From positions 1 through 64,000 of the forward strand of contig CAXBME010000001.1 of NCBI GenBank assembly GCA_963976765.1: DNA of 64,000 nt. The letters run 5' to 3'. The stretch is from an uncultured Planctomycetaceae bacterium (GTDB taxonomy: Bacteria; Planctomycetota; Planctomycetia; Planctomycetales; Planctomycetaceae). Below the pieces are notes generated by a model that saw nothing but the letters and a program-made list of their open reading frames with translations, was not told the DNA's origin and ran no database searches. Both the position numbers and the translations under genes were made by a program. Positions 36,388 through 49,042 of this stretch are shown here, piece after piece. Numbering within the stretch: position 1 is the first letter of the stretch; each line of letters begins with the position of its first letter.

Positions 36388-36424
36388 CGTCAAGGATGAC
36401 GACACCGGACTCAGTCCAGGATGG
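36388..36424 (+). promoter_or_regulatory. GGA-loop hairpins in leader (CsrA-type)
   Basis: cgtca-AGGA-tgacg and cca-GGA-tgg (SD position) before ATG 36430. Confidence 0.45.
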
Positions 36425-36429
36425 TATCG

Positions 36430-36999
<570 letters not shown>

Positions 37000-42270: not shown

Positions 42271-43155
42271 TTGTCTGCGTCGGTGCACGTTCCCGTCATG
42301 TTGCGCGAGGTTTTGCAGGAGCTTGACCTCAAACCGGGGCTGACCGTCGTTGATGGAACCGTCGGAGCGGGCGGGCACAGTCAGAAGATTTCGGAGCAGA
42401 TTGGTGAAACGGGAATTCTGATCGGGCTGGATCGTGATTCGATGATGCTGAACTTTGCGGCGGAGCGAGTCTCTGGAGCGGGTCGGCACCTCATACAAAG
42501 CAGCTATTCGGAAATCAAAAACGTACTCAACGAACTGAGCATCGACACTGTCGATCGTATCCTGCTGGACCTGGGCCTTTCGTCCGACCAGTTGGCGGAT
42601 CGGCAGCGAGGATTTGGATACTCCGTCGACGCTCCACTTGATATGCGGTTTGACAATCGATCAGGAAAGTCCGTTGCGGAATACCTCGACAACGTCGACC
42701 AGACAGAGCTGACAGAGATACTCACAACGTACGGCGAAGAAAAATTCAGCGAAGCCATTGCTCAGAAAATTGTTGAGCGGCGGCGCAAACAACCTATTCG
42801 AACAACCAGAGATTTGACTGAAACTGTGGAGGAAGCCATCCCTGCCAGATTCCGGCAGCAGTCTCGGAAAGACCCGTCAACTCGAGTCTTTCAGGCATTG
42901 CGGATCGCTGTCAATCAGGAGTTGGCACTTCTCGAACAGGCTCTGCAGACGGAGCTTTACGAGGCGCTGGCTCCAGGTGGCAGGTTATCGGTCATTACGT
43001 TTCACTCGTTGGAAGACAGGCTCGTCAAGAACGCGTTTCGTGATGACAACCGGTGGAAAGTGCTGGCGAAAAAGCCGACGGCACCGACTCCGGCTGAGGT
43101 TCGCATGAACCCCAGATCGCGCAGCGCCAAACTTCGAACGGCGGCAAAGCTATGA
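42271..43155 (+). CDS. rsmH: 16S rRNA m4C1402 methyltransferase RsmH (MraW)
   Basis: HVPVMLREV, DGTVGAGGHS, DLGLSSDQL, PLDMR, FQALRIAVN, FHSLEDR, NPRSRSAKLR. Confidence 0.98.
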   Translation: MSASVHVPVMLREVLQELDLKPGLTVVDGTVGAGGHSQKISEQIGETGILIGLDRDSMMLNFAAERVSGAGRHLIQSSYSEIKNVLNELSIDTVDRILLDLGLSSDQLADRQRGFGYSVDAPLDMRFDNRSGKSVAEYLDNVDQTELTEILTTYGEEKFSEAIAQKIVERRRKQPIRTTRDLTETVEEAIPARFRQQSRKDPSTRVFQALRIAVNQELALLEQALQTELYEALAPGGRLSVITFHSLEDRLVKNAFRDDNRWKVLAKKPTAPTPAEVRMNPRSRSAKLRTAAKL

Positions 43156-45542
43156 CAGACAAATACGAAAACGAAGACGAAGAATACGACGACGAAGAAG
43201 CAACTTCGGAATCGGAAGAGGAATACGAGGACGAAGCCGAGGATGCAGAAGCCTCGGACGAGTCTGAGGAAGTCTCTGAAGGCGAAGAGTCCGTCGAGTC
43301 GTGGGGCTATGAAGAGAAGAAGTCTCGCTTCAGCAAAGAAATGCTGGCTGGCTTCGCCGCGATCGGTGTGCTCGTCGCAATCTTCGGCATCGTCGTCTAC
43401 AAAAAGATGCCGGGTTCTGGTGACTCGAATGAAGTCGCTGTAGCTCCGGATGCCAGTCTGGGTAACCCGGAATCAAGCCTCGGAACACCGGAAGATTCAG
43501 GGACTTCGCCCGAAGATGATCTGAACGATCCGTTTCGCGCCGGTGCTGAAAACGGGATCGCGGCAAGTAACCCTGGCTCGCAGTTTGAACCCGGCGGCGC
43601 TGAAGCGTCGAATACTGCACCGGGGGGCGGCGAGTTCGTCGCTTTGAGTCCGGCCAACGATGGCTCGACAACATTCGAGCCAGGTGGCATGTTGTCGTCG
43701 ACTGTAGCTCGGTCTCCGAGTGAAGGCTCCAGTGGACAGGGCATCTCATCCGACCCATTCGGCAGTGGAGGGACGCTCGGCAATGACGAACCATTCGCCA
43801 GTAACGCTGCAACGACCGATCTGTTTTCCGGGCAGTCGGAACCCGGACTCGGCTCGAACGAAGAACCACCATTTGGCGGCTCGACGGTTGGCACGTCGAC
43901 GGCCACTGACGCATTCGGTCAACCTCTGGCGAGCAACGAATTCAGCTCAGGCCAGCCCGACTCGACGAAGGTTTTTCCTGGCAGTGGACGAAACGATTTT
44001 GCGGACTCAACGCGTCGCGACCCGTTTGGCGGGCCGGACCTGGCGGGCAGTCCATCAACTGATTCAGGCTCAACAGTGTTTGGCACAAACGAAGGAAACG
44101 GCAGCGGTCCATTCTCGCAGGATAAACAGGTCGCGAAGAACGAGCCGAACATCGATCGTTCTCTCAATAGTAGTTTGTCTGGAAATTCTGGCTCAGCGTT
44201 TCCGTCGGAAACTTCGGGCAACGCAAGTGAGTTCAGTTCGTCGACCGGCAGCGAGCCGTTCGGCACGACAGTCGACAACTCTGGTTCCTTGACGAACGAC
44301 TCTTTGACGACCGCCCCATTTGGCTCCAGCGTCGAAAGCGTAAGTTCACAACCGACTGGACTGTTTGATCGAGGGCCGGAAACGTCGCTCAGCGGCGGCG
44401 GCTTGAACGAGCCATCGCCGACAGATTTGTCGGCCAGTTCAGGTTTTGGCAATGACACGCTGCCCGACAATGAACTTGGTACCCCTCAGCCATCGACGGC
44501 GGAGAGCGAGTTCGGCTCACTGAACAGTGGCTCCGCAATAGATTCATCGGCCCCGTTCGGTAGTGGTGAGCCTTTTGGAACTTCCAGCAACGAGTTGGCC
44601 GAGAGTCCTCTCGGAAACTCAGGTACGACTTCGCCGTCGATGAGCAATGACCCATTTGGAAGCCCAGCCAGCACGGCGTCGAATGATCTCTTCCCTGATT
44701 CAACCAGTCGTCCTTCATCGGGCCTTCCTTCAACAGGCTTCGATTCTGGAAATGAGTTGGAATCCGAATCGAGCGAGCCGGTGGACCTCTTTCCGGATAC
44801 GAATTCGCTGCCGCTCGATACAGCTTCCAGCGACCCGTTTCAGCCACCGTTGACGTCGTCGCCCGCCAGCAGTTCTCCGGGGGCATCGTCCTCGATTTCG
44901 AGTGATCCTTCTGGTAACCAGCCGCTACGTTCGGGAAGCTCAACCCGCAATCAAACATTCGCCAGCGAGCCAGCCAACTCGGGCACTTATACCGTGCAGG
45001 AAGGTGACTCTTACTGGAACATCTCGAAGAAGGTCTACGGGACGGCGAAGTACTTCCAGGTGCTCGCCGACCATAACCGAAAGACCATTGCCGACCCGGA
45101 GAAGATGAAAACGGGAGCTGTCATTCAGACTCCTGACGCTGCGGTTCTGCAGGCACGCCTGAAGACGGTGCCGCGTCCGTCACCGACCGCGTTGTCTGGT
45201 CGCATCGAGACTTCCGGTCGAGCAGACCGTTCTGGTTCTGCGGGATCGGCAAGCTCGGCCAGCGAGTCTGTCGTCGTCAGCCGTCGCGAAACAAAGTCGA
45301 GCGAGCCGTCGGGCATCCTGTTTAACGAGCAGGGTTACCCAATGTTCAAAATCGGAGAAACCGACACTCTGACGTCGATCGCGTCAGATCATTTGGGGCG
45401 AGCGTCGCGCTGGCAGCAGATTTACAACATGAACCGAGATCAGTTGCAAAGCCCGGACAAGCTGCAAATCGGCATGCTCCTCAAACTTCCTGCCGACGCC
45501 AGCCGCGTCCCACTGATCGACCGGACATCGTCGCTCCGATAA
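43152..45542 (+). CDS. Bitopic protein: acidic N-tail, TM helix, about 520-aa Phe-punctuated S/G/P/D region, two LysM domains
   Basis: ATGA overlap with rsmH; YTVQEGDSYWNISKKVYG and FKIGETDTLTSIA..LG...W..IY..N...L.IG..LKLP LysM patterns. Confidence 0.9.
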   Translation: MTDKYENEDEEYDDEEATSESEEEYEDEAEDAEASDESEEVSEGEESVESWGYEEKKSRFSKEMLAGFAAIGVLVAIFGIVVYKKMPGSGDSNEVAVAPDASLGNPESSLGTPEDSGTSPEDDLNDPFRAGAENGIAASNPGSQFEPGGAEASNTAPGGGEFVALSPANDGSTTFEPGGMLSSTVARSPSEGSSGQGISSDPFGSGGTLGNDEPFASNAATTDLFSGQSEPGLGSNEEPPFGGSTVGTSTATDAFGQPLASNEFSSGQPDSTKVFPGSGRNDFADSTRRDPFGGPDLAGSPSTDSGSTVFGTNEGNGSGPFSQDKQVAKNEPNIDRSLNSSLSGNSGSAFPSETSGNASEFSSSTGSEPFGTTVDNSGSLTNDSLTTAPFGSSVESVSSQPTGLFDRGPETSLSGGGLNEPSPTDLSASSGFGNDTLPDNELGTPQPSTAESEFGSLNSGSAIDSSAPFGSGEPFGTSSNELAESPLGNSGTTSPSMSNDPFGSPASTASNDLFPDSTSRPSSGLPSTGFDSGNELESESSEPVDLFPDTNSLPLDTASSDPFQPPLTSSPASSSPGASSSISSDPSGNQPLRSGSSTRNQTFASEPANSGTYTVQEGDSYWNISKKVYGTAKYFQVLADHNRKTIADPEKMKTGAVIQTPDAAVLQARLKTVPRPSPTALSGRIETSGRADRSGSAGSASSASESVVVSRRETKSSEPSGILFNEQGYPMFKIGETDTLTSIASDHLGRASRWQQIYNMNRDQLQSPDKLQIGMLLKLPADASRVPLIDRTSSLR

Positions 45543-45780: not shown

Positions 45781-46260
45781 ATGTTCTTCCGATTCGGAAG
45801 TGCGCTCATTCTTGTCGTGGTGACGTCGCTGCTTGGCATCTTTGTCGAGAAGCAGAATCTGACGCTGCGCCGCGAGATCAGCCGTCAGCATTACCGCATG
45901 GATGTTCTGCAGGAAGAACATGCTCGTCTGCGGCTGCGTTCTCAACAGCTGGCCGCCGTCGAACGATTGTTCGCCACGATCGAAGATGAAGAGTCCGGGC
46001 TCATTCCCGCATTGCCGGGCTCGAACACTTTTCTGCCCGATTCGGAAGCTGCATCGGAAACGGCATCACATGCCGAGTCCTCAAGTGAGGAGCGTTTCTC
46101 GAACGGCGCGTTTAACGATGGTTCCAGCGACCAGCTTGACCCGACTTCCGACCACCGTCCTGTCAAGTCCGACGCGTCTGACCTGACGACACGCCGAGTC
46201 CCGCTGCTCTTCTGGCAGAAGCCGGTCGGTGACCCGCGGCTCCAACGAGGTTCGAAATGA
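45781..46260 (+). CDS. FtsL-like bitopic coiled-coil protein
   Basis: N-terminal TM, heptad coil, EEHARLRLRSQQLAAVERL; ATGA overlap with ftsI. Confidence 0.65.
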   Translation: MFFRFGSALILVVVTSLLGIFVEKQNLTLRREISRQHYRMDVLQEEHARLRLRSQQLAAVERLFATIEDEESGLIPALPGSNTFLPDSEAASETASHAESSSEERFSNGAFNDGSSDQLDPTSDHRPVKSDASDLTTRRVPLLFWQKPVGDPRLQRGSK

Positions 46261-48029
46261 CCTCACGATCCGGCACAACAAGCAACCGCGGTCGAGTTCG
46301 ATTCGTGTCGACCTTGATGATCGGTCTGTGGGTAATCGTGGTCGGGCGGCTGTTCATCGTGCAGTGGGAGCAGGCCGACGAACTTGCAAACTACGCCACC
46401 AGACAACAGCTTACTGAAGTATCGGTCTCCGCTCGACCGGCCGATATTGTCGATCGCAGCGGACGACTACTCGCCACGACGATCGTTTCGCAAAGCCTGT
46501 TCGTCAATCCGCAACGCCTTGACGTCAGTGATGAATTCATTGCCGACCTGGCGAATTCGCTTTCGATCAACTCAGCGAGTCTCGGGGATCGGATTAAAGA
46601 ACATGCTGACAAACAGTTTCTCTGGGTGAAGCGGAGAGTCAGTGACGACGAAGTGGCTGCCGTTCAGCAGTTGGAATGGCCGGACAGTGCGTACGGATTC
46701 CGAGACGAATTTCTTCGACAGTATCCTCAGGGGCACGTCGCTTCGCACGTGCTCGGCTATCGAAACATCGACGGAGCCGGGCAGGGGGGCGTCGAGCAGA
46801 GCCTTAACTACCTGATCGAAGGCATCCCCGGAAAACGCAGGCTGGTTCGCGACGCGCTGGGACGTATCGTCGAAGTTTCCTTCGACCCTGACAGCGAACC
46901 GAAACGCTTCGACGCTGTGCAACTGACGCTCGATCTGACCGTCCAGATGTTCGCGGAAAAAGCACTCGACGAGATCGTCGACGAATGGAAGCCGACCGGT
47001 GCCTGCGCGATCGTCATGGAACCGAAAAGCGGCGACGTGCTGGCAATGGCTTCCCGACCAACGTACTCGTTGAGTGATATGTCGCACGTGCCGAGCAACG
47101 CCTGGCGCAACCAGGCCATCAGCATCGTTTACGAACCGGGCTCCACCTTCAAGCCGTTCATCGTCGCCGAAGCCTTGCAGAAAAACGTGATCAAACGAGA
47201 CGAGATGTTTGATTGCGAAAACGGCGAATACAGGATGGGACCGCGCTTGCTGCACGACCACCATCGCTACGGCAAACTGTCTGTCACCGACGTGCTGGTT
47301 AAGTCGAGCAACATCGGCATGGCGAAGATTGGCGAACGTCTGAGGAATCGAGGTCTTTACGACGCGACGATCAAATTCGGTTTCGGCCGTCCGACCGGGA
47401 TTGATTTGCCGGGCGAGTTGTCCGGCATCCTGCGGCCGCTGAAAGAATGGAATGGTTATTCGACAGGCTCAATTCCGATGGGACACGAACTGGCCGTCAC
47501 GCCGCTGCAACTGATCACCGCCCAGGCAGCACTCGCCAACGGCGGACGACTGATCACTCCGCGAATTCTCAAAGGCGTGCAGGGCGAACGCTCAGACTCC
47601 GCACGAGCGTTTCAGGTTTCGCTCGAAGACCCATCACTGGCGGAACCGGCCACGATTATTCGTCCGACTGTTTCGAGTGAGGTCGCTCGATGGGTCATCG
47701 AAGAACCAATGACCCAGGTTGTCTCGCGCGGCACGGGATCGCGAGCGAAGATTCCGGGCTATTCGGTTTTTGGGAAAACCGGGACGGCCCAAAAGATGGA
47801 CCCGAAAACCGGCAGCTACTCTGAAACCCTTCACTGCAGCTCTTTCATCTGTGGAGCACCGGCACACAACCCGCGAGTTATCGTGCTGGTCGTCGTCGAC
47901 GAGCCTCAGTCTGGCTCGACGCACTACGGAGGCACCATCGCCGCTCCCGCTGCCGCAAAGATCCTGAGCCGATCGCTGATGTACCTGCGAGTGCCGCCGG
48001 ATCAGGAAACCCGCACGGCCGCTCGGTAA
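46257..48029 (+). CDS. ftsI: Class B penicillin-binding protein (FtsI/PBP3-like)
   Basis: R..IVDRSG, RQYPQG, GVE, EPGSTFK (SxxK), SSN, GKTGTAQK. Confidence 0.92.
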   Translation: MTSRSGTTSNRGRVRFVSTLMIGLWVIVVGRLFIVQWEQADELANYATRQQLTEVSVSARPADIVDRSGRLLATTIVSQSLFVNPQRLDVSDEFIADLANSLSINSASLGDRIKEHADKQFLWVKRRVSDDEVAAVQQLEWPDSAYGFRDEFLRQYPQGHVASHVLGYRNIDGAGQGGVEQSLNYLIEGIPGKRRLVRDALGRIVEVSFDPDSEPKRFDAVQLTLDLTVQMFAEKALDEIVDEWKPTGACAIVMEPKSGDVLAMASRPTYSLSDMSHVPSNAWRNQAISIVYEPGSTFKPFIVAEALQKNVIKRDEMFDCENGEYRMGPRLLHDHHRYGKLSVTDVLVKSSNIGMAKIGERLRNRGLYDATIKFGFGRPTGIDLPGELSGILRPLKEWNGYSTGSIPMGHELAVTPLQLITAQAALANGGRLITPRILKGVQGERSDSARAFQVSLEDPSLAEPATIIRPTVSSEVARWVIEEPMTQVVSRGTGSRAKIPGYSVFGKTGTAQKMDPKTGSYSETLHCSSFICGAPAHNPRVIVLVVVDEPQSGSTHYGGTIAAPAAAKILSRSLMYLRVPPDQETRTAAR

Positions 48030-48242
48030 ATGGCTGCTGGTTCGGCACGACCGGACTGCTGTCGCCGGTAACGTTGCCTCAACGCAACAGGTCCCTCGGC
48101 ACGTTGCCGTCCGGCATCATGATTTCTGATATTGCTGGCAGAGCCTCAGGTCGATGAAAACATTTCGTCGCGATTGTAACTGACGCTGGCTCAACAGGTT
48201 ACAGTCAGGGTTTCCTGCGCACCTTCGACGAACCGTAAAGTT

Positions 48243-48258
48243 TGGCATTCAGTCTGCT
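48243..48258 (+). promoter_or_regulatory. sigma54-type -24/-12 promoter
   Basis: TGGCATTCAGTCTGCT with exact GG-N10-GC spacing, about 68 nt before ATG 48326. Confidence 0.55.
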
Positions 48259-48325
48259 TTACGGTCTGCTGTCTCGATCACCGAGACCGGAGCTACCAGC
48301 TCTGCAAACCATCGAAGGAAACGCC

Positions 48326-48598
48326 ATGTTGATTCTCGCCACGAAACTTCTGAATGATGAAGCCGGCTTTCTGCTTTCCGCCGAGCTGATTCTGATTTCG
48401 ACGGTGCTGGTTCTGGGCATGGTGGTGGGGCTTTCAGAAGTTTCGCATGCCATCAACAACGAACTGTTCGACGTGGCGACCGCCTTCGACAACGTCAACC
48501 AGAGCTACCGCTACGACGGCATGTTTGACGATCACGGCAGCTCACATGGCAGCCGTTACGGCGACTACAGCTACGACATCAGTTGCCGTGGGTATTAA
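48326..48598 (+). CDS. Flp/type IVb pilin-like protein
   Basis: AAGGA SD; short leader ending DEAG, then FLLSAE, hydrophobic helix, INNELFDVA. Confidence 0.75.
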   Translation: MLILATKLLNDEAGFLLSAELILISTVLVLGMVVGLSEVSHAINNELFDVATAFDNVNQSYRYDGMFDDHGSSHGSRYGDYSYDISCRGY

Positions 48599-48700
48599 AC
48601 GCCAGGTGGACTGATCAACAATCGGAAACGCTGCCACCGTCTCAAGTGAGATCGGTCGTTGCGTGCTCAGCGGGCCATTTTCTGTTTCTGGAGCATCGGC

Positions 48701-49042
48701 ATGATGCGGAGTCTCTTTTCACTACTCTGGACGGACCAGGTCGGTTCGACGCTGTCAGCCGAAATGGCACTGGTGACTTCGGTCACGGTTGGTGCCCTGT
48801 TCATGGGCATGGCCGACTTCAGTGCGACGGTGAATCGCGAGTTCCAGAGCTCAGCTCGTGAAGTCGGCCTGGCCGGAATCGAAGCTTCCGCTCAGGAAGA
48901 GGAACGAGAAGACGACGTTGTCAGCAGGAAGAAATCAGAAGTTGAAAAGACCGAAGAAGAAAAAGCAGAAGACGAGATGAAACGGAATCAGTGGCGGTTC
49001 CGCCGAGCTGAAGACCGCGAAACACCGGGAAATCGTGACTGA
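48701..49042 (+). CDS. Second Flp-like pilin paralog with charged tail
   Basis: GGAG SD; LWTDQVG-STLSAE, hydrophobic helix, VNREF. Confidence 0.65.
   Translation: MMRSLFSLLWTDQVGSTLSAEMALVTSVTVGALFMGMADFSATVNREFQSSAREVGLAGIEASAQEEEREDDVVSRKKSEVEKTEEEKAEDEMKRNQWRFRRAEDRETPGNRD

Follow-up and report, generated by a model that had tools for sequence, protein, structure and literature searches.

What is a long, acidic, phenylalanine-bearing and predicted-disordered chain doing between a transmembrane (TM) helix and two LysM domains in a planctomycete? The question is raised by a gene in the window, i.e., the whole stretch of 64,000 nucleotides analysed here (positions 1 to 64,000 of contig CAXBME010000001.1, GenBank assembly GCA_963976765.1, from an uncultured Planctomycetaceae bacterium). 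The initial annotation had likened the chain to FG nucleoporins and proposed a convergent periplasmic gel, a diffusion barrier or a multivalent docking scaffold. What it missed is the decisive context, namely that the LysM gene is a member of a division and cell-wall gene cluster. Here we present the organization and conservation of the locus, together with an interpretation of the linker.

Organization of the locus

The remnant of the cluster in the window begins with rsmH and continues with the LysM gene, an FtsL-like gene and a class B PBP gene. ATGA overlaps occur at two junctions, where the stop of rsmH meets the start of the LysM gene and where the stop of the FtsL-like gene meets the start of the PBP gene. 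The features are as follows.

42271..43155, + strand: rsmH (mraW) (PF01795, E 9e-94; TIGR00006 over cut-off)
43152..45542, + strand: LysM gene, encoding a 796-aa single-pass membrane protein with acidic tail, TM helix, long linker and two LysM domains
43152..43316, + strand: acidic N-terminal tail, predicted cytoplasmic (30 D/E in 55 aa)
43302..43397, + strand: juxtamembrane motif (WG[FY]..., with E directly before the helix) and TM helix (residues 64-82), conserved
43410..44984, + strand: Phe-bearing acidic S/G/P/T/D/E/N linker of 525 aa (residues 87-611 of 796), predicted disordered
44985..45167, + strand: LysM domain 1 (long YgaU/Kbp type) and following helix (profile; model pLDDT >90)
45312..45506, + strand: LysM domain 2, whose additional N-terminal strand is conserved across the family (profile; model pLDDT >90)
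45781..46260, + strand: FtsL-like protein of 159 aa, TM helix and coiled coil (position between rsmH and ftsI, TIGR02209, alignment)
46257..48029, + strand: class B PBP, FtsI-like, with the catalytic SxxK, SxN and KTG intact (profile matches, motifs)

The helix, the two LysM domains and the acidic tail are all present as initially described. The juxtamembrane and TM sequence is conserved beyond the hydrophobicity of the helix (KD 2.7), while the tail is conserved in the genus and, in many of the other orthologues, short or missing; many of them begin just ahead of the helix. PF01476 (LysM) matches the protein with 38.8 bits (cut-off 20.9), and the model of the LysM pair, based on a 41-row alignment, has pLDDT >90 in both domains and the beta-alpha-alpha-beta fold. 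A structure search with this pair placed LysM structures on top, the closest being of the Kbp/YgaU type and LysMs of injection systems, and the ESM Atlas matches to the protein were planctomycete LysM clusters only. The disorder prediction that had been proposed as a check agrees with a flexible linker: AlphaFold on the full-length protein gave the linker pLDDT <50 and no secondary structure, in a model that is informative on disorder alone (pTM 0.19). The LysM domains, together with a weak positive-inside bias (more K/R on the N-side in 21 of 34 orthologues), suggest an N-in/C-out topology, which would put the linker on the periplasmic side. A promoter and terminator scan at the locus yielded nothing exceeding chance.

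Gene neighbourhood across planctomycetes

Regarding 35 genomes of the host family that were examined, the best LysM match lies directly after rsmH in 30, the others being four loci cut by contig ends and one paralogue; the full order rsmH, LysM gene, ftsL-like gene, PBP gene is found in 25 of the 35. Among 24 genomes from other families of the class, the LysM gene directly follows rsmH in 16, is partial in one, was not found in five and is cut off in two, and it stays beside rsmH also in families without the PBP gene behind it. Of 66 other-class genomes with an rsmH match, at least 21 have a LysM match no more than 12 kb downstream of it, a figure that is a lower bound, taken among the matches listed. 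Twenty other-class loci, selected for a LysM match near rsmH, were examined, and each of them carries, on the same strand, a TM-linker-LysM gene, which follows rsmH in four cases, follows the ftsL-like gene in two and lies further down in 14. Six of these far loci were annotated, and there the LysM gene lies among ftsW, murG, murC and murB. Since the gene shifts its position yet stays in the cluster, it is probably tied to the cluster functionally.

A profile of the family's juxtamembrane and TM sequence was run on 39 distant proteins; 18 of them scored within the top 5% of 946 TM-like genome proteins, the strongest being those encoded after rsmH. These scores support common descent for the proteins after rsmH, and the remainder are regarded as positional homologues.

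Three orthologues from other families (L042 in G049, L077 in G060 and L081 in G044) have open frames of 1,100-1,780 codons in which very long low-complexity sequence flanks the TM helix on both sides. Two other-class loci (L092 and L094) contain a second short TM-LysM gene a few kb down the cluster, one of them beside an OmpA-domain gene.

Division genes of the genome

The FtsL-like gene is without a meaningful Pfam match. Among its 31 orthologues, 14 have TIGR02209 as their top family (best E 3.6e-7), and the protein in the window reaches 20.8 bits, below the curated cut-off of 42.45. It fits a small TM and coiled-coil protein between rsmH and ftsI, and the gene is conserved in the family and in three other families. 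To our knowledge, planctomycetes are usually scored as being without ftsL. This gene is normally identified by just such a position, as described in PMC8871954, and the published gene table for Planctopirus limnophila lists no ftsB and is without a row for ftsL. An FtsB/DivIC-like gene (G000:C15:122965-123561, - strand, locus L122; Pfam over cut-off) lies directly behind the enolase gene (eno), and the genome also carries FtsW/RodA and Mur ligases; a search of the genome with SPOR, FtsZ and FtsQ profiles yielded no match. To judge from these assignments, the ftsB-like, ftsL-like and ftsI-like genes and ftsW suggest a hidden FtsBL-WI set.

Composition of the linker

The hand counts of the initial annotation are confirmed: the 525 aa contain 30 Phe, no Trp, no Tyr, 12 FG, 12 PF, 5 DPF and 3 DLF. 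Its FG and PF counts exceed those expected from composition (4.1 and 3.2, respectively, as means of 5,000 shuffles), and shuffles likewise gave an expectation of 0.21 for DPF, 0.12 for DLF, 0.42 for PFG (observed 8) and 6.4 for SF (observed 0). Most Phe residues stand within [DEN]PF, LF and FG contexts. The gaps between them measure 6-40 residues and have a coefficient of variation (CV) of 0.46, compared with 0.92 in 10,000 shuffles, none of which was that low. The periodicity assumed at the outset was not recovered, as the dispersal is even but has no period (Fourier maximum p 0.7-0.8).

Repeat scans detected only short dispersed matches in the linker DNA, in agreement with the first reading, and the only two tandem arrays, both short, lie within the acidic tail. 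An origin of the linker from DNA tandem repeats is rejected for lack of such an array. The linker has a net charge of -56, with Asp+Glu at 13.1%, S+T at 29%, FILVM at 15% and 2.3 FG per 100 residues. Its contour length is about 190 nm, and scaling laws give a coil radius of about 7-8 nm.

Conservation and selection of the phenylalanine motifs

Across 23 genus-level sequences, Phe identity is 0.76 and Ser identity 0.48, the former being an upper estimate, since the figure is inflated by aligners that anchor on rare residues such as Phe; the sequences are also related and non-independent. Retained Phe residues have switched their codon in 57 of 122 cases, in each of six pairs within the genus the motifs have a lower pN than the spacers, and several motifs do not vary in any of the 23 sequences. 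By these comparisons, the motifs are under protein-level selection in the genus. Motifs are gained and lost as entire motif-plus-spacer units; the commonest replacement of Phe is Leu (52 of 135 non-gap substitutions), and Trp occurs in some genera.

The pattern [DEN]-P-[FW] occurs 53 times (4.2 expected) in six members of the genus and 86 times (12.6 expected) in 27 further genera of the family, taken here as Planctomycetaceae. Excluded from the counts are G036, in which the TM helix was not located and a frameshift is likely, the fragment G045, and two loci, of which one is a paralogue and the other off-target. Among family orthologues, D is enriched 3.7-4.0x at position -2 of Phe. Enrichment in the individual protein is seen in only 15 of 27 family members outside the genus, and even Phe spacing in 13 of 26. 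FG is found in the family at 2.4-2.6x expectation, with a density of 0-2.9 per 100 residues in 33 orthologues, 11 of which have at most one FG. Judged by these counts, the motif shared family-wide is [D/N/E]-P-F, not FG, and FG is a by-product.

In other families of the class (16 proteins), the linker measures 233-1088 aa, its median Phe content is 1.0%, and the motif occurs 4 times (2.1 expected); in other classes (20 proteins), it measures 56-189 aa, with 1.1% Phe and no motif. From this lineage pattern, length and disorder of the linker are old, and the Phe motifs are a late gain of the family only. As for the proposed check on whether orthologues keep their Phe spacing, the spacing is even in half of the family members outside the genus, and the other families have roughly 1% Phe.

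The same motif in other exported proteins

In the whole proteome, DPF occurs at 0.86 of expectation, which rules out a proteome-wide DPF bias as an explanation; the linker tops the 176 low-complexity segments of the genome. Exported low-complexity segments contain the motif 23 times (9.1 expected), 10 of these in a DUF11 protein, and cytoplasm-like segments 8 times (8.4 expected). (Note that counts of the motif as a DNA pattern are swamped by off-frame matches.) Two exported proteins unrelated to the LysM protein and to each other, the DUF11 protein and a secretin, carry the motif in their linkers as well. Homologues of the former have 39 motifs (6.5 expected) at 12 family loci and 4 (2.6 expected) at 17 loci of other families; included in these counts are L136, a row in the wrong frame, as well as paralogues and four linkers limited to 500 aa. 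Homologues of the secretin have 16 (1.6 expected) in 10 family genomes and 2 (0.9 expected) in 10 genomes of other families. As kin are not independent, the motif in three genes is treated as one lineage event.

The DUF11 protein (G000:C4:331543-334062, + strand, locus L121) has an N-terminal linker with ten [DEN]PF motifs; its gene lies 1.3 kb from ftsW with an unrelated gene between, a proximity judged incidental. The secretin (G000:C18:13790-19726, - strand, locus L123) has 1,978 aa with NPF motifs in N-terminal low-complexity stretches. By eye, the DUF11 protein and the N-terminus of the secretin share a small helical unit, a candidate reader domain. In a DUF11 homologue of another family (L143 in G053, family f3), the dispersed aromatic residue is Tyr (14) instead of Phe, which suggests that the linkers of other families follow a grammar of their own.

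Proposed function

We explain the gene position, the architecture, the lineage pattern of length and motifs and the selection on the Phe motifs by a membrane protein from the division/cell-wall cluster whose predicted-disordered linker is part of a tether from the inner membrane to the peptidoglycan and bears [D/N/E]-P-F docking motifs, a reading that we hold to be somewhat better than even. The TM helix would anchor the protein in the inner membrane and the LysM pair would grip glycan strands, which the long linker would let it reach across the periplasm widened in the host class; for planctomycetes, PMC5394234 describes an enlarged periplasm through membrane invagination. The conserved TM helix and juxtamembrane motif may bring the protein next to the FtsL/FtsI(/FtsB/FtsW) synthase. 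As a later, family-specific addition, the [D/N/E]-P-F motifs would offer repeated short docking sites of low affinity to a putative periplasmic partner, which may also recognize them in other exported proteins, and the chain would stay expanded, not gelled, owing to its acidic spacers. A point against the tether is that its LysM type is nearest to those of Kbp/YgaU and the injection systems, not all of which bind peptidoglycan. The place of the gene beside rsmH in families with no PBP gene behind it also counts against this reading, as do, for the motifs, the enrichment of only 15 of 27 individual proteins outside the genus and the share of the DUF11 protein in the excess among exported segments.

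An essential role in division is disfavoured, because ftsI, ftsW and both mraW genes are described as dispensable in P. limnophila (PMC6952346, PMC10632474, PMC12283558). The insertion index reported there for mraW (Plim_2101) is 0.0625, and those of the flanking genes are 0.123 and 0.131, above the low cut-offs of that paper; if one of these flanks is the LysM gene, it is therefore non-essential, unlike FtsN. A more far-reaching version of the tether, which we consider speculative and rather unlikely, is a periplasmic [D/N]-P-F code convergent on endocytic NPF/DPF, in which a putative reader binds the LysM protein, the secretin and the DUF11 protein, and the network pins the invaginated membrane to the wall and positions the hidden FtsB-FtsL-FtsW-FtsI synthase in FtsZ-free budding.

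The tether might also hold with Phe motifs that have no specific partner and act as biophysical handles typical of the family's long exported linkers (weak stickers for self- or membrane contact, chaperone or protease-resistance signals). The turnover of whole motif-plus-spacer units, the replacement of Phe mostly by Leu or in some genera by Trp, and the occurrence of the motifs in three unrelated proteins fit such handles, as does the search of the genome for EH and adaptin-ear domains, which yielded no match, weakly so with the controls equally silent. Both the fixed D/N-P-F order and the total avoidance of SF exceed what generic stickers need, however, and several motifs are invariant throughout the genus-level sequences, so that we rate handles as improbable. 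An envelope sensor or division brake, in which linker and LysM domains sense the condition of the wall and send a signal via the TM helix to the tail (as in RsgI) or inhibit division (as in YneA), appears quite unlikely. It could draw on the conserved TM helix and juxtamembrane motif, on a weak YneA match (E 4e-4, far below cut-off) and on extracytoplasmic disordered regions that are described as sensing wall gaps in Bacillus (PMC9732909), but the acidic tail that would receive the signal is not conserved past close relatives, and the annotated loci show no sigma factor or regulator linked to the LysM gene.

The periplasmic structure envisaged at first, a diffusion barrier or cohesive gel of the FG-nucleoporin kind, is the least likely of these readings. 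In its length, its G/S/T/A/N/Q/P spacers, its hydrophobic fraction and its dispersed Phe the linker does resemble the Nup98-type FG domains (disordered chains of about 550 aa) described in PMC4283134, and the even Phe spacing and the enrichment of FG in the family also speak for this reading. The ten phase-separating Nup98 domains reported there have, however, 6.3-10.3 FG per 100 residues and 0-0.5% Asp+Glu, so that the linker has one third of their FG density and is at least 25-fold more acidic, and a charged Nsp1 FG region is described as not phase-separating (PMC4283134). None of the 33 family orthologues reaches 6.3 FG per 100 and all have 10-24% Asp+Glu, the 16 long linkers of other families manage without Phe enrichment, and a Pfam search gave no nucleoporin match. 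With FG density this low, acidic content this high and a shared motif other than FG, the gel is unsupported, and a selective barrier formed by the linker is unlikely; weak condensation under acid or divalent cations may occur, given the match to Nup98 in length, spacers and hydrophobic fraction. What stands of the initial interpretation is multivalent docking, which motif excess and selection make a plausible and the likeliest use of the Phe residues. The dominant motif of the linker is DPF/EPF/NPF, and homology to Nup98 is not implied. DPF and NPF motifs are known from the endocytic adaptors Eps15 and epsin and from EH ligands. Endocytic ligands repeat the same tripeptides in an acidic disordered chain, a resemblance only; the chain here is predicted to be periplasmic.

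Comparison with known proteins

FtsN of E. coli is described as a cytoplasmic tail, a TM helix, a long disordered linker and a C-terminal glycan-binding domain (10.1101/2024.05.13.594014), an arrangement matched by the topology predicted here. Aromatic linker residues near the membrane and a link to FtsL/FtsI are likewise common to both by this comparison. The present protein differs in having a LysM pair instead of SPOR, a domain absent from both protein and genome, and a linker of about 190 nm rather than the roughly 70 nm given for FtsN; its gene lies inside the cluster, in a host without FtsZ, and is probably not essential. An essential segment of FtsN binds FtsL/FtsI and activates FtsWI.

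Chlamydial NlpD (CPn0902 and Waddlia NlpD) is described as a septal, peptidoglycan-binding protein of an FtsZ-less PVC bacterium, with a TM helix, two C-terminal LysM domains and no LytM, encoded in a wall and division cluster (PMC4083446, PMC4083426). The likeness is one of architecture and gene context, and the 525-aa acidic, motif-bearing linker sets the present protein apart; carboxypeptidase activity is reported for chlamydial NlpD. According to one review, NlpD does not occur in Planctomycetes (PMC5147048). RsgI, PBP1 and streptococcal membrane proteins, as described in PMC9732909 and PMC12041528, share a long Ser/Thr-rich extracytoplasmic region in a wall-related membrane protein; the host here is a diderm, and the linker has aromatic motifs and a terminal LysM pair.

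The LysM protein would be a phylum-wide tether of the division cluster with an extreme, motif-decorated linker. A full-text literature search yielded no paper on this protein or its motifs (a 2008 survey of PVC division clusters may mention the gene), and a term search found no mention of LysM in the available text of PMC10632474, PMC12283558, PMC5147048 and PMC8871954. The protein bears on two questions in planctomycetes that lack FtsZ, their mode of division and the attachment of the invaginated inner membrane to the wall (PMC12673574, PMC5394234). It offers a phylum-wide candidate that standard gene lists omit, bound to the cluster yet mobile within it, with a linker that grows several-fold in the host class alongside the enlarged periplasm. 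The overlooked ftsL-like gene beside it and the ftsB-like gene behind eno add to the gene set, and [DN]PF, which recurs in the linkers of three unrelated exported proteins, points to an interaction through short motifs in the periplasm.

Additional genes

A paralogue of the LysM gene (G000:C4:363789-364730, - strand, locus L124) encodes a protein with a comparable TM motif and only one LysM domain, whose short linker contains EPF once. Elsewhere in the window, a small ORF at 36421-36999 (+ strand) without Pfam match resembles a conserved exported protein, and the ORFs at 48242-48598 and 48659-49042 (both + strand), also without Pfam match, look like paired pilin-like planctomycete proteins.
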